Sequence record: PP971806.1
Source of the DNA: Escherichia phage GaoY1-9D
Direction: 5' to 3' (one strand)
DNA length: 50,368 nucleotides
Part shown: one piece after another, positions 13-50,140 of the stretch
How positions within the stretch are numbered: the first letter of the stretch is position 1
How the letters are laid out: each line of letters begins with the position of its first letter
The notes under the pieces: model-generated
Database searches by the model: none
Seen by the model: only the letters and a program-made list of their open reading frames with translations
What the model was told of the DNA's origin: nothing
Made by a program: the position numbers and the translations under genes

Positions 13-714
13 ATGCATAAAAAAGAAATTGAGTCGTTACAGGCGCGTTTAAATGCCTTAGAATCGAATCAAAAACATCAAATTTCTGTGCCGTCAATTA
101 TCGCCGATCATGTTGAGCAAGCAATCCTCAAGGCGGTGGCTGGGAAGTTGACTCACGAAGCATGTGAGCAATTGCTCAAGGATTTGCCTAAGTACAATGG
201 CGATCCGTGTCACAGCACTGTCGATGCATTCGTGAATGAGCTTGCGGCTGGCCCAGGGAAAACCGTCGTAGATGATGGCGCAAAGTTTGATTATCTGACG
301 AAAGATGCCAAGTTCACTTTCGGTAGCAATTTCGGTGAAGGCAAGGAGCTTACCATGTCAACCGCGAAAATGGAACCACGAAGCGGCGGTTACGGTTATA
401 GCAATCGTCACGTATGGGCGGTGGGTGAATGTGAATCAGCACGCGATCGCAAGGTGGCTGTTTGCTATTACGTTGGCGGGAATGGCTTCATCAAGGGTGG
501 AGAATATGAGTATGAAGTAGACGAGTGTGAAACAGGTCATAAACCGAGCGTTATTCACATCACGCAAGATGCCTTCCTCTCTGGACTAAAAGGTGATTAC
601 CGCTGGAGAGCATTGAAAGTTGGTAATGTAATAAATGCTAATGGTGAGCTAGTTGACGCATACGCAACACTAAATATTAATGGCGGAGTAGTGGCTCAGT
701 TCTATATTAAATAG
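13..714 (+). CDS. hypothetical protein, 5' end cut by window; true start is the ATG at 50149 in the duplicated end
   Basis: ORF in frame with 50149..50368 through the 127-bp terminal duplication; stop TAG lies inside the cassette dyad. Confidence 0.55.
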   Translation: MHKKEIESLQARLNALESNQKHQISVPSIIADHVEQAILKAVAGKLTHEACEQLLKDLPKYNGDPCHSTVDAFVNELAAGPGKTVVDDGAKFDYLTKDAKFTFGSNFGEGKELTMSTAKMEPRSGGYGYSNRHVWAVGECESARDRKVAVCYYVGGNGFIKGGEYEYEVDECETGHKPSVIHITQDAFLSGLKGDYRWRALKVGNVINANGELVDAYATLNINGGVVAQFYIK

Positions 715-775
715 CACGTTTTGTTAAAAGGGGATTCATGCTGACTGGTATAATCCCCACATCAACCACACGAAA
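712..775 (+). promoter_or_regulatory. intergenic cassette copy (dyad TAGCACGTTTTGTTAAAA, hairpin, TGGTATAAT, box, RBS)
   Basis: dyad 712-729; inverted repeat GGGGATT/AATCCCC 730-758 containing TATAAT 749-754; ACACGAAAGG before ATG 788. Confidence 0.6.
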
Positions 776-787
776 GGAAGTTAACCA

Positions 788-1327
788 ATGAATCAGATGT
801 ACGCCATGATTAAGCACCACTTGAACACAGACGCAATCAATAAGCCAGTCTACCTGTTTGATTACGACGGAACTTTATCTGACGGATCGCATCGTTTGCA
901 TAAGTTGCCTACAAAGGATTTGCACCTTACTGAGTCATGGTCTGAGTTCAATCGACTTTCAGAATATGATCAGCCTATCGAGTCAACTATTCAGGTAATG
1001 AACAGCCTGTTTGACTCCGGCGCGTTCATCATTATTCTTACAGGGCGTTCAGACGAGGTGTGTGAGATTTCTACTCAGTGGCTTCATGATGCTGGAGCAA
1101 AATATAACGTTATGGTCATGCGCCAGGCAAGTGATAACCGAAAGGATACCATCATCAAAGAGGAGTTCTTGCGGTATATTGGCTTGCATCAAATTACGGC
1201 AGCATTTGATGACAGTCCTAACGTAATCGCTCACTTTCGAAGCCTAGGCATCACCACATACCAGGTGTGTGACTATGGCGATAAACTACATGCTGGCGTC
1301 GGATCGCATGGCGTGCATCATAAGTGA
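788..1327 (+). CDS. HAD-superfamily phosphatase (possible polynucleotide 3'-phosphatase)
   Basis: N-terminal motif YLFDYDGTLSDG (DxDGT); cassette upstream. Confidence 0.6.
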   Translation: MNQMYAMIKHHLNTDAINKPVYLFDYDGTLSDGSHRLHKLPTKDLHLTESWSEFNRLSEYDQPIESTIQVMNSLFDSGAFIIILTGRSDEVCEISTQWLHDAGAKYNVMVMRQASDNRKDTIIKEEFLRYIGLHQITAAFDDSPNVIAHFRSLGITTYQVCDYGDKLHAGVGSHGVHHK

Positions 1328-1447
1328 CGATATACGAACATAAATTCAGCAGCAGGGGCGTTGATATGCTCCTGCACTATGTAGACGAAAAATAGGCAAA
1401 GCTCATGCTTAAGACGCATGGCGGCACAATAACGAGGATTAACACAA

Positions 1448-2065
1448 ATGTCAAAGATTATCATTCTCAACGGTCCAGCTTCGGTTGGTAAAGACACGAT
1501 CGGCAACGAGCTCGCAGCGAATTACAAATGCATCCCGACCAGCTTCAAGCGTCCAATGTTTGAGATTGCAGCATCCATCCTTGGTGCCAGGGCTTTCTCA
1601 AAGTTCATCACCGCATACGACGACCGCGACCAGAAAGAGATGCCTCATGACTTTCTCGGTGGCAAGACCTGCCGTGAGTTCATGATCTGGATTAGCGAAA
1701 CAGTGGTCAAGCCGCTTTTTGGCAATCAGCAGTTCGGCAAATTGATGAGCGAACATATCCAGCTGTGTGATGAAGGCTTTAGCTTCGTTTGCACTGATGG
1801 CGGATTCCCAGATGAAGTAATCAGGCTCGTTGAAGATGGTCACGATGTTACCCTGGTCCGCCTGTTCATGGATGGGAAGACGTTCGAGGGAGATAGTCGT
1901 GATTATATCCGCATCAAGGAATCGCATTTCCCTGACTATAAGAAATATAACGAGAATGACGTTCATCTTGTGAATGGCGATATTGACGGCGGCGTCATGG
2001 CGGTTGTTCGCGCCTGCGGTATCCGTCCTGCAATCGACGAGTGGGCCGACGATATTCCTTGGTAA
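1448..2065 (+). CDS. P-loop kinase (polynucleotide or nucleotide kinase-like)
   Basis: Walker A GPASVGKDT near N-terminus; RBS AGGA upstream. Confidence 0.55.
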   Translation: MSKIIILNGPASVGKDTIGNELAANYKCIPTSFKRPMFEIAASILGARAFSKFITAYDDRDQKEMPHDFLGGKTCREFMIWISETVVKPLFGNQQFGKLMSEHIQLCDEGFSFVCTDGGFPDEVIRLVEDGHDVTLVRLFMDGKTFEGDSRDYIRIKESHFPDYKKYNENDVHLVNGDIDGGVMAVVRACGIRPAIDEWADDIPW

Positions 2066-2066
2066 A

Positions 2067-2130
2067 TAGCACTAATTGCTAAACCCGCCCCGGCGGGTTT
2101 TGTTATAGTTAGTTCACACCAAACGAGAGG
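2067..2130 (+). promoter_or_regulatory. intergenic cassette copy with terminator-like hairpin
   Basis: TAGCACTAATTGCTAAA 2067-2083; CCCGCC/GGCGGG hairpin then TTTTGTTATAGT; AAACGAGAGG before ATG 2139. Confidence 0.55.
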
Positions 2131-2138
2131 AAAGCAAT

Positions 2139-2297
2139 ATGATTACTATCAACCTGTCAGACAAGCAAGCTGCCGAGCTTAAAGAGGCGATTTCTATAAA
2201 GAAAATTCGATACGGCCAGCACGATCGCCCTGAAGTTATGAGGGAAGTAATTAAACAGATCAACAATCAACAATTTGACGAAAACGAAGGGGAATAG
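2139..2297 (+). CDS. small hypothetical protein (52 aa)
   Basis: ATG 2139 with cassette and RBS upstream; below the ORF-track size cutoff. Confidence 0.45.
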   Translation: MITINLSDKQAAELKEAISIKKIRYGQHDRPEVMREVIKQINNQQFDENEGE

Positions 2298-2299
2298 CC

Positions 2300-2698
2300 A
2301 TGAAGTTACGTTGCATAAAGATTAATCCATGCGCATCAGAATGGTTTAAGAAAGACTTTCAGGTTGGCAAGGTGTATGAGGCAGAGCGCGGTCGTGATAT
2401 CTACACAGGCACAGTAGATGTTATTGGTGGTAATGAAGGTATTGCTTGGTGCACTATACAGAAAGGAAGCAAATTCAACCTAAGCATCGGAAGTGGACCT
2501 GCTGTCACGTTCGAGCTGGTAAAGGGTCCGCGCCGCCTGGTTGTAACTGAAAAACGTGTAACTGGCGTATTGAACGACAAGCGAAAATTCCGCCGCATGT
2601 GCCGCCAGTACGGTAAGCTTCGATTCACTGAGCCTGGGATGTTCTGCTTTATCGCATGGCGAGCAATGAAAAAGAATGCACGAAATTACCAGCGATAG
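2300..2698 (+). CDS. hypothetical protein
   Basis: ORF with RBS GAAGGGGAA; stop TAG is first triplet of next cassette. Confidence 0.5.
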   Translation: MKLRCIKINPCASEWFKKDFQVGKVYEAERGRDIYTGTVDVIGGNEGIAWCTIQKGSKFNLSIGSGPAVTFELVKGPRRLVVTEKRVTGVLNDKRKFRRMCRQYGKLRFTEPGMFCFIAWRAMKKNARNYQR

Positions 2699-2760
2699 CA
2701 CTTTTTGTTAAAACTCAGAATCGGGGTGGCTGTATAGTTACCCCATCGAAACGAACGAGG
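2696..2760 (+). promoter_or_regulatory. intergenic cassette copy
   Basis: TAGCACTTTTTGTTAAAA 2696-2713; hairpin GGGGT/ACCCC with TGTATAGT; CATCGAAACGAACGAGG. Confidence 0.6.
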
Positions 2761-2768
2761 AAGCAGAA

Positions 2769-2981
2769 ATGAAAATTGAAATTATCGACGTGAATTACAA
2801 GCCGGAAGAAGATGCGATGACTCTTGAGGAGTGCGGATTTAAAGTTGGCGATGTTGTCGAGGTGTCCGGCGAATACAATAATGGCGACTTGTCGATTCAG
2901 GCAATCCGTAAGACTATGTTCGTCAATATCGGCAATGAAGTAAGTATTAGTGAGCATGAATACAAGGTGATCGAAGAATGA
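2769..2981 (+). CDS. hypothetical protein
   Basis: ORF preceded by cassette and RBS. Confidence 0.5.
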   Translation: MKIEIIDVNYKPEEDAMTLEECGFKVGDVVEVSGEYNNGDLSIQAIRKTMFVNIGNEVSISEHEYKVIEE

Positions 2982-4316: not shown

Positions 4317-4324
4317 TTCATTTA

Positions 4325-10767: not shown

Positions 10768-10795
10768 TTGACCGTTTAACAAAAAATGCTATTAT
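10768..10795 (+). promoter_or_regulatory. sigma70-like promoter for capsid gene
   Basis: TTGACC, 16-bp spacer, TATTAT. Confidence 0.55.
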
Positions 10796-20760: not shown

Positions 20761-20807
20761 CGCCTGTATAATGAAACCTCTATAAATCGCACGAAAGGCT
20801 AAACATC

Positions 20808-26979: not shown

Positions 26980-27050
26980 CACTTTTTGCTAAACACTAAC
27001 GCGGTGATTTGCTATAATCACCGTAAATCAAACGAAGTAAACAAAGGTAT
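26977..27050 (+). promoter_or_regulatory. intergenic cassette copy
   Basis: TAGCACTTTTTGCTAAA; hairpin CGGTGAT/ATCACCG with TGCTATAAT; AATCAAACGAAG. Confidence 0.6.
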
Positions 27051-27055
27051 ATATA

Positions 27056-30381: not shown

Positions 30382-30405
30382 AATTTCAACTCCTATTTTT
30401 ATTGA

Positions 30406-30440
30406 TAGCACGAATTGCTAAAGCGCAGTATAGCATTACT
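30406..30440. promoter_or_regulatory. cassette-like dyad copy without downstream gene (orientation ambiguous)
   Basis: TAGCACGAATTGCTAAA 30406-30422 then GCAGTATAGCAT; followed by terminator. Confidence 0.35.
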
Positions 30441-31434: not shown

Positions 31435-31468
31435 TAAAAAAGGTTGCACCAATTATGGCACAACCTTG
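31435..31468 (-). terminator. intrinsic terminator-like hairpin
   Basis: minus-strand hairpin AAGGTTGTGCC/GGTGCAACCTT then T-run. Confidence 0.45.
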
Positions 31469-31472
31469 ATTG

Positions 31473-31946
31473 TCATTCTTTAGCTTTTCGTGCTGCTTCG
31501 TTTGCCGCTTTAATTTTTCGCCATGATCGACACTCTGGTTTAGTGGCTAGTTCAGCCTCAGTGACGACGCGCAGCATGTGACGCTTTTTGCAACGCAGCG
31601 TCAGCGGCTTACCGTTCCCATCGAATTGCAGATCAGGTCGGCAGAATGTAGCGCGGAATCCTTCGCCAGTTCGCTTATATCGGTTGTGCGCCAGTTGAGC
31701 GCCGCGAGCCGACATCATTCCTCGTTTAAACCATTCCTCAACGGCCTGGCGACTAACCTTCAGTTGTTTTGCGATATTGGCCTTCGTTCCGTAGAAGTCG
31801 AGAACCATTTCCAGTCGCGCCCGAAGCCCGGCCTTTACTTCATCTTTTAAAACGTAGTAACCTGAGGGTCGTTTCCGTTGCTTTTTGTCTTCAGTTCGGA
31901 CTGTTCCGTTGTTGCCGTTAATGGTTCGCTTGTCGACTGCATTCAT
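31473..31946 (-). CDS. HTH DNA-binding protein (putative transcriptional regulator)
   Basis: helix-turn-helix-like segment TKANIAKQLKVSRQAVEEWFKRG; basic protein. Confidence 0.5.
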   Translation of the reverse strand: MNAVDKRTINGNNGTVRTEDKKQRKRPSGYYVLKDEVKAGLRARLEMVLDFYGTKANIAKQLKVSRQAVEEWFKRGMMSARGAQLAHNRYKRTGEGFRATFCRPDLQFDGNGKPLTLRCKKRHMLRVVTEAELATKPECRSWRKIKAANEAARKAKE

Positions 31947-31959
31947 CTCATCACCTCAA

Positions 31960-32038
31960 TAGCACTTTTTGTTAAACATTGGTTTCGAAGGTTGTTATTA
32001 TAACGTCAATCGAACGAACATGAAAGGCATTTAATACT
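31960..32038 (+). promoter_or_regulatory. intergenic cassette copy in divergent region
   Basis: TAGCACTTTTTGTTAAA; TGTTATTATAAC; AATCGAACGAAC; RBS GAAAGG. Confidence 0.6.
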
Positions 32039-34639: not shown

Positions 34640-35057
34640 TAAAGGCGATTACCTGGAGTATTACACTCCAGACAAATCGGATACATGGACCGAGAACAAG
34701 CACCAGGTCGATTGCGTGACCTGGACGAAGGTTAGGCATTGTGATTTGCTGTTCTGGCACGCCGTTAATGAGAACAAGAAGCACATCCACACGGCGTTAA
34801 AGGATGCTCAGAGCGGGTTATTGAAGGGGGTTAGTGACTTTGTATTCCTTATAGGTCCGTTCGGTAAATATCCTTTCGGAGCCATAGAATTAAAGCGCGT
34901 CAATAAGAGCGGAAAAGGAAAGGCATCACCAGTCAGTAAGGAGCAGAAAGATTTCCTCCGGCGCGTCCGTGAGCGTGGCGGATTCGCGGCGGTGGCATAC
35001 GGCCAAGAGGAGTATAAGAAAGCTGTTCATGACATGCTGAATAGCACGAATTGCTAA
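34626..35057 (+). CDS. VRR-NUC-like nuclease (putative)
   Basis: GVSDFVFLIGPFGKYPFGAIELK (D ... ELK); protein ends MLNSTNC, read through cassette dyad. Confidence 0.45.
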   Translation: MSIIDKGDYLEYYTPDKSDTWTENKHQVDCVTWTKVRHCDLLFWHAVNENKKHIHTALKDAQSGLLKGVSDFVFLIGPFGKYPFGAIELKRVNKSGKGKASPVSKEQKDFLRRVRERGGFAAVAYGQEEYKKAVHDMLNSTNC

Positions 35058-35115
35058 AGAGGAATCAGTGAGGTGGTGTATTATCACCTCATCGAAACGA
35101 AGTAACCAACCAAGG
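35042..35115 (+). promoter_or_regulatory. intergenic cassette copy
   Basis: TAGCACGAATTGCTAAA; hairpin GAGGTG/CACCTC with TATTAT; CATCGAAACGAAG. Confidence 0.6.
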
Positions 35116-35123
35116 AAATCAAA

Positions 35124-35396
35124 ATGAAAAAGTCAATCATCGCTCTACTGGCAGTTGTGGCAATGGCAGGTTGTGCAGAAGATACCAAGTTTTACGATTG
35201 CGGTAAGGAATCATTCACAGTAACCAAGTCACAGATTGTTTCAGACAAGGGCGTTGTTATTGAGCGTGAAGGCGATCACTATGAACTGCAAACTTTCTTG
35301 GGGAAGGCGGTTTACAACGTGACTGAAAGTCAAGTCAAGGTTAGCGTAGGTGGGTTCGTTGCCGTAAATAACTGTAAAGTTACCGAGGTTAAATAA
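35124..35396 (+). CDS. small lipoprotein
   Basis: signal peptide with lipobox AMAGC; adjacent to dam start. Confidence 0.55.
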   Translation: MKKSIIALLAVVAMAGCAEDTKFYDCGKESFTVTKSQIVSDKGVVIEREGDHYELQTFLGKAVYNVTESQVKVSVGGFVAVNNCKVTEVK

Positions 35397-36127: not shown

Positions 36128-36355
36128 ATGAGCAGTGTACAAATCAATTTAACCGACAAAGGTCAATATCTTTTATTCCGCGCGATCGTTTGTGAGGTGT
36201 TAACGAAAGCAGGCTTTAAGGGTGACGCTTGGGAGTTCTCGGATCTGGATATGTCATTCGAAGAAGTGCAGGATCAGCCGATTAACACATGGGCTAAAGC
36301 GATACGAAAGGATATGGAAGACTATAAACGCGATTGCCCCGAAGATTTCGCATAA
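36128..36355 (+). CDS. hypothetical protein
   Basis: ATG 36128 in frame of track ORF 36119..36355. Confidence 0.45.
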   Translation: MSSVQINLTDKGQYLLFRAIVCEVLTKAGFKGDAWEFSDLDMSFEEVQDQPINTWAKAIRKDMEDYKRDCPEDFA

Positions 36356-36420
36356 TAGCACGAATTGCTAAACATACCCGCCGCCGCGCGGGTATACTTC
36401 TTTCATACCAACGAGACGAG
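36356..36420 (+). promoter_or_regulatory. intergenic cassette copy
   Basis: TAGCACGAATTGCTAAA; hairpin ATACCCGC/GCGGGTAT; CAACGAGACGAGG. Confidence 0.55.
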
Positions 36421-36428
36421 GAATCACC

Positions 36429-36662
36429 ATGAAGAAGCAACCTTTTAGCACTTACAACCAGCAGGCATACCGTAAAAATATTTTACTGCCGCACCTGCTT
36501 CGCCTGGCTAATGAGTGCGCAAGTGAAGCGCTGTCGCTTGGTAAGGACGGCGGTCTTGACGAAGTGATTGCCGTTACTTATCTCAAGGGCGCTTATGGTC
36601 ACTTGCCGATCGCAGACTATCAAGCTATGTCAGGGAGCTTTGACATTTATGGTAACTGTTGA
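36429..36662 (+). CDS. hypothetical protein
   Basis: ORF after cassette. Confidence 0.45.
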   Translation: MKKQPFSTYNQQAYRKNILLPHLLRLANECASEALSLGKDGGLDEVIAVTYLKGAYGHLPIADYQAMSGSFDIYGNC

Positions 36663-38356: not shown

Positions 38357-38357
38357 G

Positions 38358-38420
38358 TAGCACTTTTTGCCTAACATGTAGCGCCGGAAGGCGCTATATT
38401 CATATCTCACTCACAGAGGA
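38358..38420 (+). promoter_or_regulatory. intergenic cassette copy
   Basis: TAGCACTTTTTGCCTAA; hairpin TAGCGCC/GGCGCTA; GCTATATT. Confidence 0.5.
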
Positions 38421-38427
38421 TTCAATC

Positions 38428-38601
38428 ATGGTTAAATTATTTTGTGTTAAGAACACATCTAAAACCCTGCCTTTCACTGTTAAAAATCCGTACAGCGCCG
38501 AGTATCAAGGTGACGGTAACTACAAGATTTACGGCGACGATATGACGTGGATTTTTGCGCCTATTGATGGTGCGCTGGTTGAATTTATTATCGCTGACTA
38601 G
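38428..38601 (+). CDS. small hypothetical protein (57 aa)
   Basis: ATG 38428 with RBS AGAGGA. Confidence 0.4.
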   Translation: MVKLFCVKNTSKTLPFTVKNPYSAEYQGDGNYKIYGDDMTWIFAPIDGALVEFIIAD

Positions 38602-42357: not shown

Positions 42358-42528
42358 TTATTTAGCGTAATTGGTAGAGAATTTAGCGCCAGCAAACTTT
42401 GATGGTTTACGGTTTGCATTGATTGTTTCATAAACCTTCTTAGTATCGCGAGCGTCAATTACCTCAAAAACCATCAAAGCGACCATTGGGAAAACTACTG
42501 CGATAACCATCAAAGTTAAAATAATCAT
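42358..42528 (-). CDS. small membrane protein (56 aa)
   Basis: internal ATG 42528; hydrophobic MIILTLMVIAVVFPMVALMVF. Confidence 0.35.
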   Translation of the reverse strand: MIILTLMVIAVVFPMVALMVFEVIDARDTKKVYETINANRKPSKFAGAKFSTNYAK

Positions 42529-42544
42529 TTTCTCTAGCTCTCGT

Positions 42545-42607
42545 TGTTTCGTTTCGATGGAGTAATAGTATCGCATCCTTGCGATTGTGTTTTAACAAAA
42601 AGTGCCA
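42545..42607 (-). promoter_or_regulatory. intergenic cassette copy (minus orientation)
   Basis: minus strand TGGCACTTTTTGTTAAAA; hairpin ATCGCA/TGCGAT; CATCGAAACGAAAC. Confidence 0.55.
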
Positions 42608-42855
42608 TTTGCTAGTTTGACATATCAATCCAAGAAAATACAAACTAACTCTATTCTAAATCAAACGGTATTGACCTATTGTAAAAGTACATATAACAAT
42701 CATAGTTATGTTTTGGTTGCACCGTCTCAGATAGACACGCCTTTACAGAATCGCGGTCAGATGGATCTACATGCTCAGCCTTAAGTAATGCTAAGATCTG
42801 GTTATAGCGCACCATTAGTTGTACAATTTGCTCCTGCCTCATATTATCTACCCCC

Positions 42856-43086
42856 TTAAAGTTGCTCGGCAATGTAAGAATGACAAGCGCGAAGCTTCAT
42901 TAATGCACTACCTTTCACTTCGCCTACTATGTTCATAACCTCTAATCGATCCTGTGGGTTCATCTTAGCGTGCCAGACATGGTTAGCAAGTTCCAGATTG
43001 CTCATGTTAGGTTCCATCTCAAGCAGCTCTCGCTCGAAGTCTATAACTTCTCTTGCAGCTTCTTTAAAGTTAATCATTTTCTTCAC
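42856..43086 (-). CDS. hypothetical protein
   Basis: ORF with RBS AAGGTG; cassette upstream. Confidence 0.5.
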   Translation of the reverse strand: MKKMINFKEAAREVIDFERELLEMEPNMSNLELANHVWHAKMNPQDRLEVMNIVGEVKGSALMKLRACHSYIAEQL

Positions 43087-43094
43087 CTTTCTTT

Positions 43095-43156
43095 ATTTCG
43101 TTTCGATGGGATGAATATACAGGAAAAGCCCCGAAGGGCTTTAGCAATTCGTGCTA
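43095..43156 (-). promoter_or_regulatory. intergenic cassette copy (minus orientation)
   Basis: minus strand TAGCACGAATTGCTAAA; hairpin AGCCCTTCGGGGCT; TGTATATT; CATCGAAACGAAAT. Confidence 0.6.
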
Positions 43157-43302
43157 TTTCGTGCTTTCTCTATCGCATTTAGCATTGTTTCATGGCTCTC
43201 GAGCAAATCCTCGTTAAACCAATCACCGCATGGCCATCCCTTTCCGCTATAGGCACTAATGACTTCCAGATCGAAGTAGTTTATCTCAGATGGCAGGAGC
43301 AT
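43141..43302 (-). CDS. small hypothetical protein (53 aa) ending NSTNC, translated through the cassette dyad
   Basis: ATG 43302 overlaps upstream stop; RBS GAGGTG; stop TAA inside dyad. Confidence 0.3.
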   Translation of the reverse strand: MLLPSEINYFDLEVISAYSGKGWPCGDWFNEDLLESHETMLNAIEKARNSTNC

Positions 43303-44147: not shown

Positions 44148-44372
44148 TTAGCTCCAGGAATTGATGTAAAGTGAGTTATCGTTTAACAGGTTGACCATCT
44201 CGGCGCGGGTAAGGCTACGGATGATTGAGCCTGGATGAGTGCCAACAACGTAGCGGTCGAACTCACGGCGCGTAATGGTGATTTGGCTAACTCCTGCGGC
44301 GCGGTCAAGTTTGATGATTGCGCGGCCTTTGGCTTCGATATGTGCTACTACGTTCTGAGCTTTAACTGACAT
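44148..44372 (-). CDS. hypothetical protein
   Basis: ORF with cassette upstream. Confidence 0.5.
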   Translation of the reverse strand: MSVKAQNVVAHIEAKGRAIIKLDRAAGVSQITITRREFDRYVVGTHPGSIIRSLTRAEMVNLLNDNSLYINSWS

Positions 44373-44389
44373 TTTTACTTCCTCTTGTA

Positions 44390-44452
44390 TACTTCGTTTC
44401 GATGAAATGATTATGCCTCAATCCGTGAGGCTTAGTTTAGCAATTAGTGCTA
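44390..44452 (-). promoter_or_regulatory. intergenic cassette copy (minus orientation)
   Basis: minus strand TAGCACTAATTGCTAAA; hairpin GCCTCACGGATTGAGGC; CATCGAAACGAAG. Confidence 0.6.
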
Positions 44453-44453
44453 T

Positions 44454-44780
44454 TTATGCGATGTCGAACTCTGCCGCGTACGCTTCTTTGATACCCGATT
44501 CACGCATGGTGCGCTTGCTGATTTTGCGCGGGTGACGGTACTGAGCGTTAGGCTTAATCCACCAGAAGCAAGCAGTTTCACGAACGATTTCATAAGTGCT
44601 GTAACGAGTGAAAGTATCGCGCTCTGCGTCAGGTTGGGATACACAAGTCAGGTTCTTAACTTCCGGCTTGATTTCTTCCCAAACGAATGAATCCATACCG
44701 TTAACCTTGCAAGCTACCATCACATATTCAACGCCATTTTCGATTTTGATGATGTCGTTACCGCGATTTTCGTATTTCAT
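44454..44780 (-). CDS. hypothetical protein
   Basis: ORF with cassette upstream. Confidence 0.5.
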   Translation of the reverse strand: MKYENRGNDIIKIENGVEYVMVACKVNGMDSFVWEEIKPEVKNLTCVSQPDAERDTFTRYSTYEIVRETACFWWIKPNAQYRHPRKISKRTMRESGIKEAYAAEFDIA

Positions 44781-44789
44781 TTGCTTTCT

Positions 44790-44857
44790 CTATGTGTCTC
44801 GTTTCGATTAAGTAATAATACCCCATCGTGAGATCTGGCGTTTAGCAATTCGTGCTA
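44790..44857 (-). promoter_or_regulatory. intergenic cassette copy (minus orientation)
   Basis: minus strand TAGCACGAATTGCTAAA; TATTATTACTTAATCGAAACGAGAC. Confidence 0.6.
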
Positions 44858-44859
44858 TT

Positions 44860-45666
44860 TTATATGTCGCTGAAAACTTCACAGCTTTCACTGCAAGATC
44901 CGGTGTCGAATGATTTGGCCCCTCTAACCCTTGAGGCTATCTCATCTCTCGACTGTGGAAACATCTGTATAATGTCACCGATTGAGCGCCTTCCTCTGTA
45001 CATGTCAGATGATGATTCCTTTTTATTGTGCTCACTAATTGTGTCAATGAATAGCTTTGCAAGTTCCGGCTCATCTTTACACGCAAGCGCAATCTTAAGC
45101 TCTGACTTCTTGATGCAGAAAACGCAGTTACCAAGATGCTCATCAATTTCAAGGTCAAATGGCATGTCATGCCAGAAGTCGATAATGTCCTGTTTTTCGA
45201 AATCAGATATGTCAGCAAGGTAACTGAACCCATCGACGGGTTTTAGTCTCTTTGGCTCATCGGCACGAATACCAATCCATCTCTGATAATTACCCTTACC
45301 ATACTTCTCCTCGCAGTACTTCTCGAATGGCTTAGTCTTCATCCTGTTCGTACAGAATGGCCCGCCTTGGTATGGATTTCCGTACTTCCTTAGCATTCTA
45401 ATCCACCCAGTCAGATCATGGTGAATGTCATCGACGCTGACAACTTCGAAAGATGGAGCCCCGCGGAACTTATCGCTGGGCAAACATCTCAGGCAGGTTA
45501 TCGGCCTTGAAAGCATTGATGAGACTTTACGGATAAACTCATATGTCTTCGGATGCTCTGCTCCAGTGTCCATATAAATCACCTCCGCGTCAGGATGAAT
45601 CTTGAGTACCTCAAGTGTCATGTATGCCGAAGTCCTGCCGCCGCTAAAACTAATTACCTGATTCAT
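44860..45666 (-). CDS. PAPS reductase-family PP-loop ATPase
   Basis: PP-loop SFSGGRTSAYM at N-terminus; ATG 45666 with RBS AGGAG. Confidence 0.7.
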   Translation of the reverse strand: MNQVISFSGGRTSAYMTLEVLKIHPDAEVIYMDTGAEHPKTYEFIRKVSSMLSRPITCLRCLPSDKFRGAPSFEVVSVDDIHHDLTGWIRMLRKYGNPYQGGPFCTNRMKTKPFEKYCEEKYGKGNYQRWIGIRADEPKRLKPVDGFSYLADISDFEKQDIIDFWHDMPFDLEIDEHLGNCVFCIKKSELKIALACKDEPELAKLFIDTISEHNKKESSSDMYRGRRSIGDIIQMFPQSRDEIASRVRGAKSFDTGSCSESCEVFSDI

Positions 45667-45744
45667 TTCAACTCCTATTTGTGCGCTAAATAACAACCAG
45701 ATGATAGCAACTAACCCATGAATGGTCATTAGCAAAAAGTGCTA
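45667..45744 (-). promoter_or_regulatory. cassette-like element upstream of PAPS reductase gene
   Basis: minus strand TAGCACTTTTTGCTAAT at 45728-45744. Confidence 0.45.
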
Positions 45745-46373
45745 TTCGTTCGATTTATGGATTGTTGCAGCTATTGCAATGATTCACATGACTATTGCAC
45801 AGATAGCAATATTGCATCTATTGCAATGATGTTTTCTATTGTTGCGAATTGAGCAATGATTCATTGATGGGGGGAATGATGGGGTGATCAAGGATCACCT
45901 GATCGACTGGTAGGATTTTCCCGCCACACGCTTCTAGCGTATACGCGTTATTTATGTTATGCCATGTAGACACACCAGCACTCCGTAGGAATCATGTACG
46001 CATATCACGCTTAATTACGCCATGGTTACATTAAAATATCCTTATATAATAACCATTTATCTATATTATTATTATTAATATATATATATGTAGATAATGT
46101 AGATAGTGGATATGTGATATTGCGATAGTTTTCTATGATATTTTCCTACACCTGTAGGAATATGACGACATTGTAGGAATAAAAGGGCATGTAGGGGCCC
46201 ATTTGCTAAAAATCCTTATCTACAAACTATACGCAGACTTTACATTGAGCTATATCTGGGGCGATTGGTGGAAATATGTAACTAATCAGAAAATTTGCAC
46301 CGATAACACTTGATAACACGTAGATGTGTGATACTATGGAATCATCTTAGCGAAGACCAACCAATCAGGAGTA
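45745..46373. repeat. AT-rich non-coding region with TATTGCAATGAT repeats, GATC-rich palindrome, GTATAC and GTAGGAAT motifs and (TTA)n/(TA)n tract
   Basis: TATTGCAATGAT at about 45772 and 45819; GGTGATCAAGGATCACCTGATC; TGTAGGAAT three times; core related to 25560..25665. Confidence 0.6.
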
Positions 46374-46901: not shown

Positions 46902-47464
46902 TGTGGATGTTTGATTTTAACGAAGAGAAGCTGACAGATGAGCAGATTATGAAGATTGCTACGGAAGATGGGATTCCACCACTACGAGTTGCAATCAATG
47001 CTAACGGATACCGACAGTCACAAAAGTACTGGTGCGAATTAGAAGTTATGCGTCGCGCAAACCTAAATCGTGAACAATGCGTCGTGGTTGAAAAGATCTG
47101 GAAGCAAGCGATAAATGGAAAAGGCGTTGTGGGAGTTCGCTCAACATATGAGGCGATCAGAAAGGTCCAGCCGTTCGTCGAGCGTAATGGAGTAATGAAT
47201 AACCTGATTGACAATATCCTACCATCACTACAGGACGCGGGAATCATTTGCCTTATTGGTGACAAGATATATGCACACCCATACCTGGTGGGCATGTATG
47301 GGAGAGACATCCACAAGTGGTGCGACTCATGGAGATCGGTTGAGCGCAAATCTCATAGCAAATTGCAGGCAAGCTCAGACATGATTCATGGCTATGATGC
47401 CGATGATGTCAGAAAGGCTGTCGAGTTTTATCGGAAAGCTAAATCACTCCTGAACGGTGAATAG
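46901..47464 (+). CDS. hypothetical protein, truncated paralog of the 40342..41925 P-loop protein
   Basis: shares MFDFNE-KL ... PPLRVAINANGYRQSQ and GKGVVGVRS-YEA-RKV-PF ... CLIGDKIY with the 527-aa protein. Confidence 0.55.
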   Translation: MWMFDFNEEKLTDEQIMKIATEDGIPPLRVAINANGYRQSQKYWCELEVMRRANLNREQCVVVEKIWKQAINGKGVVGVRSTYEAIRKVQPFVERNGVMNNLIDNILPSLQDAGIICLIGDKIYAHPYLVGMYGRDIHKWCDSWRSVERKSHSKLQASSDMIHGYDADDVRKAVEFYRKAKSLLNGE

Positions 47465-47525
47465 CACGAATTGCTAAACAATAAATCGGGTAGTCAGCTA
47501 TGATTACCCTATCGACAACAAAGAG
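47462..47525 (+). promoter_or_regulatory. intergenic cassette copy
   Basis: TAGCACGAATTGCTAAA; GGGTA/TACCC around GCTATGAT; TATCGACAACAAAGAGG. Confidence 0.55.
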
Positions 47526-47528
47526 GAA

Positions 47529-47738
47529 ATGATTATGGAAACTGTACGTATTGACGATGTTCACTTTGACCAAGCAGAGGTCAGCGTTAGAAAAACAGTT
47601 CGTGGGGCGGTTGTATCTCTAGACTTTGATCCTGACGACTACGCAGACTGTCAAACACTGATGCAATACTCACCTGATGCTGCCCGCAAATTAGCTGCGG
47701 CATTAATCCTTGCGGCAGACGAAGTAGAGGGGAAGTAA
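47529..47738 (+). CDS. small protein, paralog 1 of tandem triplet
   Basis: C-terminal motif DAARKLAAALILAADEVEG shared with next two ORFs. Confidence 0.5.
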   Translation: MIMETVRIDDVHFDQAEVSVRKTVRGAVVSLDFDPDDYADCQTLMQYSPDAARKLAAALILAADEVEGK

Positions 47739-47740
47739 TT

Positions 47741-48162: not shown

Positions 48163-48355
48163 ATTCAGGATCGCATTGATTGAAACAACAACCGCCTTCG
48201 GTCATCCGGTCAAGTGGTATGCCGTCCAGAAACGGGTGGCCTTGTTCTGGTGGGTGACAGTGGCACATGCAAGCCAGATTGACCAGGCTCGCTACTGGCT
48301 GCATAAGTCCGGCGCACCGCATCGCAAAGAGAATGTGGTGCGAGTGGTAGAATAG
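48155..48355 (+). CDS. hypothetical protein
   Basis: start overlaps previous stop; stop TAG is first triplet of cassette. Confidence 0.45.
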   Translation: MSKFRIALIETTTAFGHPVKWYAVQKRVALFWWVTVAHASQIDQARYWLHKSGAPHRKENVVRVVE

Positions 48356-48420
48356 CACTTTTTGTTAAAACTACCGTGAGTGCACTTGCTATAGTGCACT
48401 CATTGAATCGAAACAACCAA
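48353..48420 (+). promoter_or_regulatory. intergenic cassette copy
   Basis: TAGCACTTTTTGTTAAAA; hairpin GAGTGCAC/GTGCACTC with TGCTATAGT; ATTGAATCGAAACAACC. Confidence 0.6.
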
Positions 48421-48475
48421 TTAGTCTGATACTGTTTTAATATTGTATTTCCACTTAATTATTGAGGTTAAGGCC

Positions 48476-48688: not shown

Positions 48689-48706
48689 ACACTCAGGAGA
48701 ATCAGA

Positions 48707-48925
48707 ATGAACAACGAAGAAATGATTAAGATCCGTATTATCAAGTCTCCGTATCAGGGCGTTGACTCAAGCAAGCTGCCAGTGGTGGCGATGGCCTGGA
48801 AGTTGGTAGGCGATAACGAAGAGCCATTTTACATGGTTGACGCAGATTTCATTCCGGCGCTCAGCAAGAAAGGAATGGCACCAGGCGAATGGCCCTTTGC
48901 AGAGGATGAGGTTGAATTGCTATGA
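48707..48925 (+). CDS. hypothetical protein
   Basis: ORF with RBS AGGAGA. Confidence 0.45.
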   Translation: MNNEEMIKIRIIKSPYQGVDSSKLPVVAMAWKLVGDNEEPFYMVDADFIPALSKKGMAPGEWPFAEDEVELL

Positions 48926-49020
48926 AGTTCAAATTAGTTGACGTGCTGCAATTGCTTCTTGTTGGGTTATCCTGGGTGCTTCTGTTCCTGGTGATTATCT
49001 TTCTGGTAGTGGTTAAATAG
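48922..49020 (+). CDS. small hydrophobic peptide (32 aa)
   Basis: ATGA overlap with previous stop; LLLVGLSWVLLFLVIIFLVVV; stop TAG inside cassette. Confidence 0.3.
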   Translation: MKFKLVDVLQLLLVGLSWVLLFLVIIFLVVVK

Positions 49021-49095
49021 CACGAATTGCTAAACCTTCCGCAAGGCCATTTGATATAGTGGCCTTATTGAAGCAAAACAACCAATCACAGAGGA
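49018..49095 (+). promoter_or_regulatory. intergenic cassette copy
   Basis: TAGCACGAATTGCTAAA; hairpin AAGGCCA/TGGCCTT with TGATATAGT; ATTGAAGCAAAACAACC. Confidence 0.6.
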
Positions 49096-49102
49096 TTCAC
49101 AA

Positions 49103-49483
49103 ATGAAAGTACGTTTACTTAACCCGTCAATCTACTCCCTCAAACCAAACCAGAAACTTAGCGATTGGAGCAAGGTCGCCGATCCGGAAAGTTACCCCGT
49201 AGTGGTTGAGACTGATGATATCAGCCATGAACCTAAAATCATTCAGGATGCATTCAAGGATCGCGCTCTTGTCGGTGCTAGTGAGCTGGATCGTGTTTTT
49301 AACATGGGTGGAGGTTACAAACGAAGAAGCGACACGCAGCTTGGATGGTGGAACAATCAGAATAACTCAAGTCGCCCACATATCCCTAGTAACTCCTGGG
49401 AGCCAGTCGGCCCGTTCGATTTCTGGAACAAATTAAAGGCATCACGCGAAATTGGTGAAACTGTAGGTAAGGGTTACTTATGA
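49103..49483 (+). CDS. hypothetical protein
   Basis: ORF with RBS AGAGGA after cassette. Confidence 0.5.
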   Translation: MKVRLLNPSIYSLKPNQKLSDWSKVADPESYPVVVETDDISHEPKIIQDAFKDRALVGASELDRVFNMGGGYKRRSDTQLGWWNNQNNSSRPHIPSNSWEPVGPFDFWNKLKASREIGETVGKGYL

Positions 49484-49659
49484 TTACTTTATGCATCGTG
49501 CTTTACATCCTGGGCGCACTTCCGGTTTATGCAATTGCAAAAGATGTTAGCAATAGTGACAACAAGTGGTACGACATGGTAATCGTTGCCGCTATCTGGC
49601 CCCTGGCCATTTCGCTCGGAGTGGTCAAGGGCATCTACCAAAAGTTGAAGGAGCAATGA
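49480..49659 (+). CDS. small membrane protein (59 aa)
   Basis: ATG 49480 overlapping previous stop; two hydrophobic segments. Confidence 0.35.
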   Translation: MITLCIVLYILGALPVYAIAKDVSNSDNKWYDMVIVAAIWPLAISLGVVKGIYQKLKEQ

Positions 49660-49865
49660 TTATGATCCCGTTGAAGCCAATAGTTTTTATGCGTAATGGC
49701 ATTTGGTTTGCGGTAGTTTGTGGAACTGGATACGTCTATTCAAAAACAGCCGGAAGATGGTATAAGGCTTTAAGCCAGGCGATGGTATTTACTAATTTGG
49801 TTACAGCCATCCGAACAGGAACGGCATATCAGGTTAAGGGGTTAAAAAATGCAAGTCTACACTAA
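49656..49865 (+). CDS. hypothetical protein
   Basis: ATG 49656 overlapping previous stop; track ORF 49566..49865. Confidence 0.4.
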   Translation: MIMIPLKPIVFMRNGIWFAVVCGTGYVYSKTAGRWYKALSQAMVFTNLVTAIRTGTAYQVKGLKNASLH

Positions 49866-50067
49866 CAGTAAAGGCATCGAATTTTGTGCGGTCGGAGATG
49901 TTGTCCTGCGCACTGGTAGCGATGTCGGGGTTGTTAAAATCTCACGCATCACACAGGATCAGTTGGTAAAGGGCATCCAGGCTGGAATCTTTACCTATCA
50001 CTCATCGTTGACGGCTGATGATTACATCACACTTGATGCTGCGGTTCGCGTTGGGTTCATCGAATAG
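49849..50067 (+). CDS. hypothetical protein
   Basis: ORF; stop TAG is first triplet of cassette. Confidence 0.45.
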   Translation: MQVYTNSKGIEFCAVGDVVLRTGSDVGVVKISRITQDQLVKGIQAGIFTYHSSLTADDYITLDAAVRVGFIE

Positions 50068-50140
50068 CACTTTTTGTTAAAACTTGCTCGGAGACATTAG
50101 CTATAGTGTCTCCTGTCAAGTGAACACAAATCAACTGAGG
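50065..50140 (+). promoter_or_regulatory. intergenic cassette copy
   Basis: TAGCACTTTTTGTTAAAA; hairpin GGAGACA/TGTCTCC with GCTATAGT; RBS GAGGAA. Confidence 0.6.

Follow-up and report, generated by a model that had tools for sequence, protein, structure and literature searches.

Marbox-like boxes upstream of -35-less promoters in a T1-like coliphage: candidate sites for host MarA, SoxS and Rob

MarA, SoxS and Rob are monomeric AraC-family activators with two HTH motifs each, and are joined by RamA in Klebsiella and Salmonella. Their published binding site, the marbox (GCAHWWWWTGYYAAA), is asymmetric and bound by a monomer. Forward-oriented sites cluster near -41, in class II promoters that have no recognisable -35. 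A known class II example is micF of Escherichia coli, where 18 bp separate the end of the marbox ACAGCACTGAATGTCAAAAC from TAGAAT, RamA is placed at about -41, and sigma R4 is displaced (the +1 of micF is herein the annotated RNA 5' end). On the phage side, a 21-nt direct repeat of unknown function, aaATAGCACnnnTTGnTAAAA, is already in print for TLS and was noted too in T1, Rtp, and Rogue1, and the TLS authors detected only three sigma70-like promoters (PMC11447400). Hence, the cassette discussed here is not new as a repeat, contrary to the preliminary description.

The box and its likeness to the marbox

The window—the whole stretch of 50,368 nucleotides that was analysed—is from a T1-like coliphage, a Nouzillyvirus-like member of Drexlerviridae. 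The oriented box aATAGCAC-N4-TTGYTAAAa occurs 20 times in it, as opposed to 0.1–0.4 times by chance, and a loose oriented pattern gives 20 matches compared with 0.41 in shuffles. When the training set of a position weight matrix is restricted to 91 boxes of seven other Drexlerviridae genomes (window excluded), the matrix recovers the identical 20 copies at ≥12 bits (0.1 in shuffles). The series runs from a first copy at 712 to a last cassette that ends near 50149, in line with the extent and the roughly 20 copies given before. The dyad given earlier as TAGCA-N5-TG(C/T)TA is correct, and its variant TAGCAC-N5 is off by one, the true form being TAGCAC-N4-TG; taken literally, that variant has one hit, which is within chance. 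Eighteen of the 20 copies are typical, meaning box, fixed distance, -10, CA start site, A/C-rich leader, RBS, and start codon; the copies at 10793(-) and 30404(+)/30422(-) are atypical. The structural region (about 2.9–24.2 kb) contains no typical cassette, as had been proposed. Each cassette fits an intergenic gap of roughly 75 bp, and the box often begins within or just past the stop codon that ends the preceding gene.

The search extends to related phages, with 109 cassettes pooled over eight genomes. The box is invariant across the family, and the pooled form, aAATAGCAC[T/G][T/A][T/A]TTG[C/T]TAAAa, agrees with the published marbox wherever the latter specifies a base, and it varies (positions 6–8 and 12) where the marbox has its degenerate W and Y. 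From 87 ChIP-seq sites of Salmonella MarA/SoxS/Rob/RamA (Table 1 of PMC10268841), a second matrix was built, whose consensus is GCACTAATTGCTAAA; this exact 15-mer occurs twice in the window, at 2069(+) and 44450(-). Ten window boxes are each outscored by at most three of the 87 ChIP sites. At ≥14 bits, the ChIP matrix finds 22 window sites, where shuffles give 0.74 (at most 4); the number per genome is 12–22 over the eight Drexlerviridae and one in phage lambda, taken as a control. The structurally characterised marbox of the mar promoter (MG1655) reads ATGCCACGTTTTGCTAAAT, where the phage boxes read ATAGCACGTTTTGCTAAAA. From this match, the box appears to be an asymmetric consensus marbox rather than the dyad of a dimer.

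Promoter geometry and the cassettes along the genome

TGYTA and the -10 are 22 bp apart in 14 of the 18 typical window cassettes (21 bp in two and 23 bp in two) and in 90 of the 109 pooled ones, which confirms the spacing of about 22 bp noticed earlier. Measured from the end of the 20-mer box, the gap to the hexamer is 18 bp (±1), exact in the same 14/18 and 90/109; this is the gap of micF. The -10 is a sigma70 hexamer, usually TGn/TATAAT-like and preceded by the G or TG typical of an extended -10. The cassettes lack a -35 hexamer, and a -35/-10 scan of the window shows no enrichment (37 hits against 35.8 expected). The +1, deduced from the -10, would be a CA start site 7 nt past the hexamer. 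Relative to this predicted +1, the box points forward, has its centre at about -40.5, and overlaps the -35 position, which is the class II arrangement. The leader box CATCGAAACGAA, reported before as a feature preceding the RBS, is indeed found there: it has six exact copies in the window, begins at the predicted -1/+1, and with up to two mismatches has 13 matches compared with 5.9 expected.

On the plus strand, cassette 1 (711..788) has its box at 711–730 (ATAGCACGTTTTGTTAAAAG), tggTATAAT with the hexamer at 749–754, a predicted +1 at 761, and ATG at 788; TAG 712–714 is the stop codon of ORF 13–714, and the hairpin GGGGATT/AATCCCC (730–758) encloses the -10. Cassette 2 (2066..2139) contains the ChIP consensus in its box (2066–2085), followed by tgtTATAGT (hexamer 2104–2109; predicted +1 2116; ATG 2139); its hairpin at 2084–2097, CCCGC/GCGGG and then TTTTG, is terminator-like. 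In cassette 3 (2695..2769), the box (2695–2714) supplies with its TAG the stop codon of ORF 2300–2698, and a hairpin at 2723–2744 encloses TATAGT (2733–2738), with the predicted +1 at 2745 in CATCGAAACGAA and ATG at 2769. Cassette 4 (25421..25506) is on the minus strand, with the box at 25506–25487 (ATAGCACGAATAGTTAAAGA), a 19-bp gap, TATAGT at 25467–25462, a predicted +1 at 25455 in CATCGAAACGAA, ATG at 25421, and no significant hairpin.

The recombinase gene is preceded by cassette 5 (26976..27056, plus strand), where the box (26976–26995) shares its TAG with the stop codon of the exonuclease ORF 25939–26979 and the hairpin CGGTGATT/AATCACCG (27001–27024) encloses tgcTATAAT (hexamer 27013–27018; predicted +1 27025; ATG 27056). 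Cassette 6 (31959..32039, plus), at the helicase gene, has its box at 31959–31978 and tgtTATTAT with the hexamer at 31996–32001 (predicted +1 32008; ATG 32039); the same bases read TATAAT on the minus strand, and the box would be about +11..+30 of the divergent regulator transcript. Also on the plus strand, cassette 7 (35041..35124; box 35041–35060) encloses TATTAT (35079–35084) in GAGGTGGT/ATCACCTC (35068–35092), with a predicted +1 at 35091 in CATCGAAACGAA and ATG at 35124, and in cassette 8 (36355..36429; box 36355–36374), the 3' arm of ATACCCGC/GCGGGTAT (36374–36395) runs into TATACT (36393–36398; predicted +1 36405; ATG 36429). Upstream of the lysis genes, cassette 9 (38357..38428, plus) has a degenerate box (GTAGCACTTTTTGCCTAACA, 38357–38376), the hairpin TAGCGCC/GGCGCTA (38376–38399), and TATATT at 38395–38400 (predicted +1 38407; ATG 38428).

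Five minus-strand cassettes follow. Cassette 10 (42528..42608; box 42608–42589, ATGGCAC...) has ATCGCA/TGCGAT in the spacer (42585–42570), TACTAT at 42570–42565, a predicted +1 at 42558 in CATCGAAACGAA, and ATG at 42528. Cassette 11 (43077..43157; box 43157–43138) has a terminator-like hairpin, GCCC/GGGC and then TTTTCC (43139–43128), TATATT at 43119–43114, a predicted +1 at 43107 in CATCGAAACGAA, and ATG at 43077. The box of cassette 12 (44372..44453; box 44453–44434) contains the exact ChIP consensus and is followed by GCCTCA/TGAGGC (44431–44415) and CATAAT (44415–44410; predicted +1 44403 in CATCGAAACGAA; ATG 44372). Neither of the last two has a significant hairpin: cassette 13 (44780..44858; box 44858–44839) carries TATTAT at 44820–44815, a predicted +1 at 44808 (AATCGAAACGAG), and ATG at 44780, and cassette 14 (45666..45745), at the first gene of the leftward arm, carries a box at 45745–45726 (…GCTAATGA), a 19-bp gap, tgcTATCAT (hexamer 45706–45701), and ATG at 45666, with no leader box.

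The remaining four are on the plus strand, each with its -10 enclosed. Cassette 15 (47461..47529; box 47461–47480, its TAG being the stop codon of ORF 46901–47464) has TATGAT at 47499–47504 within GGGTAGTCA/TGATTACCC (47488–47509), a predicted +1 at 47511, and ATG at 47529. Cassette 16 (48352..48443; box 48352–48371) has tgcTATAGT (hexamer 48390–48395) within TGAGTGCACT/AGTGCACTCA (48376–48403), a predicted +1 at 48402, and the next ORF start at 48443. Cassette 17 (49017..49103; box 49017–49036) has tgaTATAGT (hexamer 49055–49060) within AAGGCCATT/AGTGGCCTT (49043–49066), a predicted +1 at 49067, and ATG at 49103; it is identical in T1 and TLS, whereas in Klebsiella phage GH-K3, the hairpin shows compensatory changes (AACGTCA/TGGCGTT). 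Cassette 18 (50064..50149; box 50064–50083) has TATAGT (50102–50107) within GGAGACATTA/TAGTGTCTCC (50090–50113), a predicted +1 at 50114, and ATG at 50149.

Hairpins between box and leader

All five arm pairs quoted in the preliminary description are present, and stem complementarity exceeds that of shuffled controls, with a mean MFE of -10.3 compared with -4.4 kcal/mol. Against arm-shuffled controls, p is ≤0.025 in 13 of the 18 window cassettes; p≤0.05 is reached in 72% of cassettes. Outside the hexamer, G·T outnumbers A·C by 24 to 6 (p=0.0014; shuffles 499 to 419), a bias that points to folding in the sense-strand RNA. The favoured pairing register is symmetric about TGnTAT. The arms occupy the only two promoter segments that are unconstrained, namely the marbox-to-(-10) spacer and the discriminator, which is why the -10 lies so often in the loop. 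About a quarter of the detected stems are upstream of the -10, roughly half of those with an intrinsic-terminator-like T-run, and several cassette hairpins are annotated as rho-independent terminators in the T1 record. Thus, the idea of a terminator–promoter module fits part of the hairpin set, as terminator-like 3' structures, but only part. The RNA that folds would be the one reading through from the upstream gene; with a following U-run the hairpin would act as a terminator, and without one it is probably a 3' stem-loop that makes the upstream mRNA more stable or marks its end.

Candidate readers of the box and its reversed copies

Given motif and geometry, the cassettes, as promoters without a -35, are rather probably read by host MarA/SoxS/Rob. 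An activator on the forward marbox would take over -35 recognition and contact sigma70 region 4 and alpha-CTD, and early and middle phage promoters would be brought to the host RNA polymerase by whichever of the three is available: Rob constitutively, SoxS and MarA upon oxidative or antibiotic stress. If true, some 18 promoters of the phage would be tied into the host antibiotic and oxidative-stress regulon. Infection with other phages (P1vir, phiX174, and lambda) is reported to induce soxS strongly. Against it, unstressed cells contain little MarA and SoxS, most Rob is sequestered, and a virulent phage would run a risk by depending on them. Vc1 and Motto, phages reported from Vibrio cholerae and Pseudomonas aeruginosa, respectively, carry the same boxes in the same geometry, which speaks against the model insofar as these hosts may lack MarA/SoxS/Rob; the G+C content of Motto, 45%, is like that of an enterobacterial phage, so the objection is weaker but still stands. 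A further point against is that A1, T9, and T10 of the phage box are conserved beyond the requirement of the ChIP consensus, which may reflect a second constraint, either the TAG stop codon or another protein.

A phage-encoded reader could contact the box instead. TAGCA/TGCTA is a genuine partial dyad whose 10-bp half-site spacing would suit an HTH dimer, and a Cro-type HTH 'transcriptional regulator' (phrog_2856; 31473..31946, minus strand) neighbours the cassette system, is found throughout the family (824 phage records), has a 5' UTR that overlaps a box, and contains an invariant N-terminal arm and C-terminal block that could contact DNA or a host partner. A dimer is nevertheless not supported, since the pooled boxes are asymmetric—A-1, C5, T9, and AAA14–16 lack a symmetric counterpart, and position 12 varies between C and T opposite its invariant dyad partner G2—and match a site bound by monomeric two-HTH activators. 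The regulator, proposed earlier as the binder, has a single HTH and is a poor candidate, as no part of it varies more than the recognition helix, yet the box is invariant. Neither MarA nor SoxS has a homologue in the window by tblastn (MarA query sequence verified), and no AraC-type HTH is among the Pfam matches listed for 58 ORFs. What stands of the earlier dimeric-factor proposal is a -35-less, mostly extended -10-like (G/TG) promoter that needs a site centred near -40.

Weaker box variants lie at 20789(+) and at 31493(-), upstream of the primase gene. The latter (31440..31496, minus strand), between the regulator and primase genes, has the core GCACGAAAAGCTAAA (14.6 bits by the ChIP matrix) and an intrinsic-terminator hairpin at 31467–31440, AAGGTTGTGCC ATAA TTGGTGCAACCTT and then TTTTTATT, with CATAAT at the hairpin tip (loop and adjoining stem bases). 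The two atypical copies are reversed. At the tail-fibre promoter (30405..30435, minus strand), TGcTATACT (30435–30427) is followed by the reversed box (30422–30405) at about +1..+16, and by the RBS and ATG at 30411. The major-capsid promoter (10768..10795, plus strand) has TTGACC (10768–10773), a 16-nt spacer, and TGcTATTAT (hexamer 10790–10795); its minus-strand box (10793→10774, TAGCATTTTTTGTTAAA) covers the spacer and the first bases of the -10, possibly a repressing position, and this arrangement is kept in seven of the eight genomes (not noted in GH-K3).

Occurrence of the box within the genome and across the family

The genome of GaoY1-9D (50,368 bp, 46.5% G+C) is that of a T1-like siphovirus and shows ~90% identity to vB_EcoM-p111, 50EP, TH27, and ESCO41, with p111 being classified as Drexlerviridae, genus Nouzillyvirus. 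Rightward structural genes extend from ~4.7 to 24.2 kb of the window, and the rest contains, on both strands, small early genes, replication/recombination functions, and lysis genes. Rfam and tRNA scans returned no match. Classic contaminants of laboratories, T1-like phages are also common candidates for phage therapy; to our knowledge, their promoters have never been defined.

Upstream of genes, a 20-bp asymmetric repeat (aATAGCAC-N4-TTGYTAAAa; herein, the box) is found in the number previously claimed, about 20: a loose oriented pattern yields 20 copies in the window versus 0.41 in shuffles. The same 20 copies are recovered at a threshold of at least 12 bits (0.1 in shuffles) with an independent position weight matrix (PWM) trained on 91 boxes from seven other phages only. 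The motif had been given in two forms, one of which, TAGCA-N5-TGYTA, is correct and equals TAGCAC-N4-TG; the other, TAGCAC-N5-TGYTA, is off by one, and its literal form has one match in the window, which is within chance. When ORF ends are set against box coordinates, the TAG of the box turns out to be the stop codon of the upstream ORF at 712, 2696, 26977, 47462, 48353, and 50065.

A search of related phages, as had been proposed, finds the same box and downstream layout family-wide, with 20 copies in T1 and 18 in p111; the box also occurs in TLS, Salmonella SP-126, Klebsiella GH-K3, Vibrio Vc1, and 'Pseudomonas' Motto. The pooled set comprises 109 typical cassettes from eight genomes (18 of them in the window)—a cassette meaning a box followed by a −10 hexamer, a CA start site, an A/C-rich leader, a ribosome-binding site, and a start codon. 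A scan of viral_contigs for the box gave 23 single-copy matches in contigs that look unrelated.

The preliminary description did not recognize the box as a described element, but it corresponds to a published repeat. The 2024 re-annotation of TLS reports a 21-nt direct repeat, aaATAGCACnnnTTGnTAAAA, in 21 copies that are oriented with transcription and lie ~76 nt 5′ of start codons, and the same repeat was seen in T1, Rtp, and Rogue1 (PMC11447400). Only three σ70-like promoters were found in TLS, and the function of the repeat was left open between a stoperator, an enhancer-binding site, and a UP element (PMC11447400). The TLS repeat and the box are one element, agreeing in orientation and in distance to start codons; therefore, the box itself is not new. 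The TLS paper describes neither the fixed −10 nor the start-site and leader box, and it mentions neither a hairpin logic nor the marbox identity. In the literature library searched, no paper turned up by box sequences, by T1 transcriptome data, or by the marbox combined with Drexlerviridae, T1, or phage links the marbox to T1-like phages.

Promoter geometry and the marbox-like sequence

All 18 typical boxes of the window face toward the gene. The distance from TGYTA to the hexamer, previously estimated at about 22 bp, is 22 bp in 14 of these copies, 21 bp in two, and 23 bp in two; among the pooled cassettes, it is 22 bp in 90 of 109. Measured from the end of the 20-mer, the gap to the hexamer is 18 bp in 90/109 cassettes, 17 bp in 12, and 19 bp in 4. 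A CA dinucleotide follows the hexamer by seven nucleotides. With +1 deduced from the −10 as the A seven nucleotides 3′ of the hexamer, the 20-mer spans −50 to −31 with its center at −40.5 and the 15-mer spans −47 to −33, which bears out the earlier idea of promoters with a site near −40. The box overlaps the −35 position, which reads AAAACN. That no standard σ70 −35 is present, as had been noted, is borne out by this sequence and by a −35/−10 scan of 20 kb of the window, which is not enriched (37 matches versus 35.8 expected) and hence fits a genome largely without canonical promoters. The proposed extended −10 holds in part: most cassettes have its G or TG, but T at −15 is found in only 46 of 109. 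Many hexamers are weak, such as CATAAT, TACTAT, and TATGAT. The cassettes are very probably activator-dependent promoters that lack a −35 hexamer and, in most cases, have an extended-−10 G or TG.

The sequence of the box suggests which activator this could be. The marbox, the binding site of the host stress activators MarA, SoxS, and Rob (RamA in Klebsiella and Salmonella), is published as GCAHWWWWTGYYAAA; it is asymmetric and bound by monomeric MarA. The pooled logo of the 109 cassettes, a-A-T-A-G-C-A-C-[T/G]-[T/A]-[T/A]-T-T-G-[C/T]-T-A-A-A-a, agrees with GCAHWWWWTGYYAAA / AYnGCACnnWnnRYYAAAYn at every specified position, and the positions that vary among the phages are the degenerate positions of the marbox. 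By our calculation, an unrelated site would reproduce GCAHWWWWTGYYAAA by chance at ~2e-7 per register. The mar promoter of MG1655 contains the marbox ATGCCACGTTTTGCTAAAT, and the phage box ATAGCACGTTTTGCTAAAA is nearly the same. The 15-mers of 87 Salmonella MarA/SoxS/Rob/RamA ChIP-seq sites (Table 1, PMC10268841) give the consensus GCACTAATTGCTAAA, which is present exactly at window positions 2069 (+) and 44450 (−). On a PWM built from these sites, ten window boxes are outscored by at most three of the 87. At a threshold of at least 14 bits, 22 sites are found in the window versus 0.74 in shuffles (maximum 4), one in the λ control, and 12 to 22 in each of the eight Drexlerviridae genomes. Herein lies a difference from the host: chromosomal marboxes are degenerate, with a median of 11.4 bits, and the phage boxes, at 15 to 18.3 bits, come close to perfect.

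The earlier view of a dimeric factor on a dyad is not upheld by the asymmetric conservation and the match to the marbox. Two-fold symmetry is absent from the box, since A−1, C5, T9, and A15–16 are conserved without a symmetric partner, and position 12, the partner of the invariant G2, is either C or T.

What defines a class II marbox promoter is a forward site that overlaps the −35. ChIP combined with transcription start site mapping has placed forward marboxes in a cluster near −41; such promoters have no recognizable −35, and at micF, σ region 4 is displaced. RamA sits near −41 at micF and contacts σ region 4 and the α-CTD. In E. coli MG1655, the micF marbox ACAGCACTGAATGTCAAAAC ends 18 bp before TAGAAT (positioned by the annotated 5′ end). 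The phage cassettes resemble these MarA/SoxS/Rob (RamA) promoters of Enterobacterales in the 20-bp asymmetric marbox sequence, the forward box over the −35, the center near −41, the 18-bp gap, and the lack of a recognizable −35; with +1 deduced from the −10, every sequence-level feature of the class II marbox is found in them. Unlike the micF class, they number ~20 per 50-kb virulent genome, are fused to the upstream stop codon, and have RNA hairpin arms that flank the −10. Class II marbox-type activation by host MarA, SoxS, or Rob is the best-supported mechanism and, from the sequence, probably the right one. In the simplest reading, host MarA, SoxS, and/or Rob would bind the boxes. Rob is constitutive and has the highest affinity, yet is largely sequestered; other phages strongly induce soxS when they infect.

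Leader and hairpins of the cassettes

The leader box noted earlier is confirmed: CATCGAAACGAA starts at the CA, that is, at −1/+1, and is exact in six copies, with related A/C-rich sequences in some others. Family-wide, it is moderately conserved at 0.3 to 0.9 bits per position. It is regarded as the putative start site together with an initial transcribed region and 5′ UTR that are A/C-rich and unstructured.

The five hairpins quoted in the preliminary description are all present, and the stems exceed shuffled controls. For this comparison, the segment from the box end to +2 was folded, and the two arms were shuffled separately with the hexamer fixed; the mean minimum free energy across the 109 cassettes is −10.3 versus −4.4 kcal/mol (mean z −2.9). 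The hairpin reaches p ≤ 0.05 in 72% of the 109 cassettes and p ≤ 0.025 in 13 of the 18 in the window. The 91 stems detected comprise 46 with the −10 enclosed, 23 confined to the spacer, and 22 that overlap the hexamer. The arms occupy the spacer (−30 to −17) and the discriminator (−6 to −1), the only promoter segments without logo information, and because they are confined to these segments, the −10 is so often found in the loop. The preferred pairing register is symmetric about a TGnTAT loop. Outside the hexamer, G·T pairs outnumber A·C pairs by 24 to 6 in 68 unique stems (p = 0.0014), compared with 499 to 419 in shuffles; therefore, the structure is selected on the sense strand, which implies RNA reading through from the upstream gene and not a DNA cruciform. 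The stem AAGGCCA/TGGCCTT, shared by the window, T1, and TLS, is changed to AACGTCA/TGGCGTT in GH-K3 by compensatory or wobble changes, and another T1 cassette reads AAGGTCA/TGGCCTT.

At least three T within the next five nucleotides follow 14 of the 91 stems, including 2084–2097, 43139–43128, and 31467–31440 (CATAAT at the tip); these three are predicted to be genuine intrinsic terminators. The T1 record annotates several equivalent hairpins as terminators. The earlier notion of a terminator–promoter module is thereby upheld for some hairpins with a T-run but not for those that enclose the −10, where a T-run follows none of 46; such stems, without a U-run, would more likely act as 3′ stabilizers or pause signals. 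One could go further and regard the hairpin as the key of the cassette, namely as a terminator–promoter junction that ends the upstream transcript, with the box being terminator context such as a bidirectional A-tract. The significance of the hairpins against shuffles, the T-run on 11 of the 23 upstream-type stems in the spacer, the terminators annotated in T1, the G·U bias that indicates folding in sense RNA, and the primase cassette, a textbook terminator with CATAAT at the hairpin tip, speak for such a junction. Yet we consider it very improbable, since none of the 46 −10-enclosing stems has a T-run, five of the 18 window cassettes keep box, spacing, and −10 without a significant hairpin, and the box is conserved far beyond the need of any terminator context.

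Candidate readers of the box and promoters outside the typical cassette

The serious rival to activation by host factors is a phage-encoded class II activator, which we hold to be rather unlikely. It would keep the same architecture, an activator site at about −41 and a −10, and would place the reader in the phage: either the Cro-type helix-turn-helix protein at 31473–31946 (−; herein, the regulator), which had been suggested as box binder, or another small early protein. Such a reader would bind TAGCA-N5-TGCTA, whose TAGCA/TGCTA halves form a 5-bp dyad, perhaps as a dimer, and would activate in the manner of λ cI at PRM or Mu Mor/C; the identity to the host marbox would then be coincidence or deliberate mimicry. 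These systems likewise combine a poor or absent −35 with an activator site at approximately −42 (OR2 at −42 for cI at PRM, −43.5 for Mor and C) whose activator contacts σ region 4, and the phage described here too has a protein of the Cro/cI fold. Every genome examined has the regulator, as do 824 phage records. Its gene diverges from a box promoter, with a palindromic −10 common to both and the box in the 5′ UTR of the regulator, which is a classic autoregulatory layout. Boxes moreover persist in phages recorded on Vibrio and Pseudomonas: those of Motto (recorded host P. aeruginosa) and Vc1 (recorded host V. cholerae) have the same sequences and spacing, and this identity is a main caveat to the host-factor model. 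Motto has 45% G+C, which looks enterobacterial; the G+C content of P. aeruginosa is ~66%, far above that value.

Against a phage-encoded reader stands the asymmetric conservation of the box, in which the marbox explains every conserved or degenerate position and which chance would rarely reproduce at the rate calculated for GCAHWWWWTGYYAAA, whereas the λ and Mu sites are symmetric dyads read by dimers. The regulator is disfavored in particular. Its recognition helix (residues 66–75) is the most variable segment among 38 family members (2.08 bits entropy), with 16 residue types at position 66, and phages that share only 45 to 50% regulator identity have an invariant box. This is the opposite of the pattern expected for the reader of an invariant 17-bp site and differs from cI, Mor, and C, where the recognition helix is conserved with the operator. 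A phage-encoded activator would also leave nearly all non-structural promoters silent at entry. tblastn with MarA and SoxS against the window detected no homologue (best E-value 2.6), and no AraC-type helix-turn-helix is among the Pfam matches listed for the 58 non-structural ORFs (25 of 30 families).

Still less probable is that the boxes are negative or passive elements—stoperators, UP-like sequences, or decoys that titrate MarA/SoxS/Rob—next to extended −10 promoters that work unaided. Such promoters can do without a −35, each genome copy with its ~20 consensus sites would effectively act as a sink, and the box is oriented in the direction of transcription; reversed or misplaced boxes inside late promoters could only repress there. 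Stoperator, enhancer, and UP roles were proposed by the TLS authors, the first by analogy with mycobacteriophage L5 (PMC11447400). However, a stoperator or decoy needs no fixed 18-bp distance and orientation to the −10, as observed in 90/109 cassettes, UP elements are A/T-only while the box has an invariant GCAC and G11, and the rarity of T at −15 (46/109) together with the many weak hexamers makes unaided activity doubtful.

Other known elements were compared with the box and rejected. An L5-type stoperator consists of scattered sites without a fixed relation to promoters, whereas the box lies 18 bp from the hexamer in 90/109 cassettes, and a UP element does not account for invariant G/C positions and fixed phasing to the −10. 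The σ54 consensus TGGCAC-N5-TTGC requires an exactly spaced GG (−24) and GC (−12); the box, TAGCAC-N3-TTGY, has AG instead of GG in 107/109 cassettes and is 2 bp short. With the Lrp site, YAGHAWATTWTDCTR, only the outer YAGHA/TDCTR halves match (11/15), which accounts for neither the invariant C5 nor the conserved flanking AAA. T4 middle promoters likewise form a phage regulon without a −35 but with a conserved TGCTT-like box 5′ of a good −10. The MotA box is centered at −30, 11 to 13 bp from the −10, and requires phage MotA and AsiA; the phage box, in contrast, lies at −40, with 18 bp between it and the −10. The Pfam matches listed (25 of 30 families, 58 ORFs) include no homologue of MotA or AsiA.

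The regulator belongs to phrog_2856 with a weak P22_Cro match, and a PDB sequence search with it gave no match. Its N-terminal arm DKRTINGNNGTRRGKD (residues 5–29; DKRTINGNNGTRRGKDKKxRKRP) is almost invariant, basic, predicted to be disordered, and AT-hook-like, and a C-terminal block at residues 96–113 (G-RA--CRPD--FD-NGK) is nearly invariant. Together with the hypervariable helix, these two conserved segments suggest that the regulator has a conserved partner which is not a fixed operator. Across 31947–32038, the genes of the regulator and the helicase diverge, and their −10s are the two strands of a near-palindrome, TTATTATAA, at 31995–32003; therefore, RNA polymerase can occupy only one direction at once. 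The helicase box lies at about +11 to +30 of the regulator transcript.

With the box read as a consensus class II marbox, transcription in T1-like phages can be modeled concretely and tested cheaply. As a tentative extension, which we consider possible but rather doubtful, T1-like virulent phages (>800 sequenced genomes) may have given up autonomous −35 promoters and tied ~20 early/middle promoters per genome to the MarA/SoxS/Rob regulon. Their development might then be gated or boosted by bile salts, antibiotics, oxidative stress, or an infection-provoked soxS burst; reversed marboxes at the capsid and tail-fiber genes might mediate early repression of late genes by the same host factor, with the Cro-like protein later flipping the switch. 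If true, phage expression would be linked to the regulon of AcrAB-TolC efflux, porins, and oxidative defense, with a bearing on phage–antibiotic synergy and on infection in the bile-rich gut. The receptor of TLS is TolC, itself mar/sox/rob-regulated. Among known natural marboxes, the boxes would moreover rank as the strongest, which would make them useful as reporters or decoys.

Boxes are also found outside the typical cassettes. The major-capsid promoter at 10768–10795 (+) consists of TTGACC, a 16-nt spacer, and TGcTATTAT; a slightly degenerate reversed box, TAGCATTTTTTGTTAAA (10793→10774), takes up the spacer and the first bases of the −10. This layout occurs in seven of the eight genomes (the window, p111, T1, TLS, SP-126, Vc1, and Motto), and a marbox-binding protein would be expected to repress there. 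In the tail-fiber promoter at 30405–30435 (−), the extended −10 TGcTATACT is followed by a reversed box at ~+1 to +16. At tail gene J (20787–20810, +), a forward box, TCGCACGAAAGGCTAAAcatcATG, abuts the start codon without a −10 after it, an arrangement shared by TLS and SP-126. The tail-fiber and gene J boxes are both in non-activating positions at late genes. The tail-fiber gene (30411, −) and the first gene of the leftward arm (45666, −), otherwise unrelated, share the initiation region AAATAGGAGTTGAAAT(T)ATG.

Between the two divergent early arms, a 630-bp non-coding region (45746–46373) contains five CTATTGCA(A/C)-like repeats at 45770–45830, several GTAGGAA repeats at ~45985–46190, and a very AT-rich stretch at 46040–46110; possible roles are those of an origin, a pac site, or a control region for immediate-early genes. 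A canonical promoter, TTGATA-16-TGaTACTAT, is located just 5′ of gene 46374. A rare canonical σ70 promoter, TTGACT-16-TATAGT (10/12 matches), lies at 25878–25905 (+); it precedes the exonuclease gene at 25939, a gene without a box.
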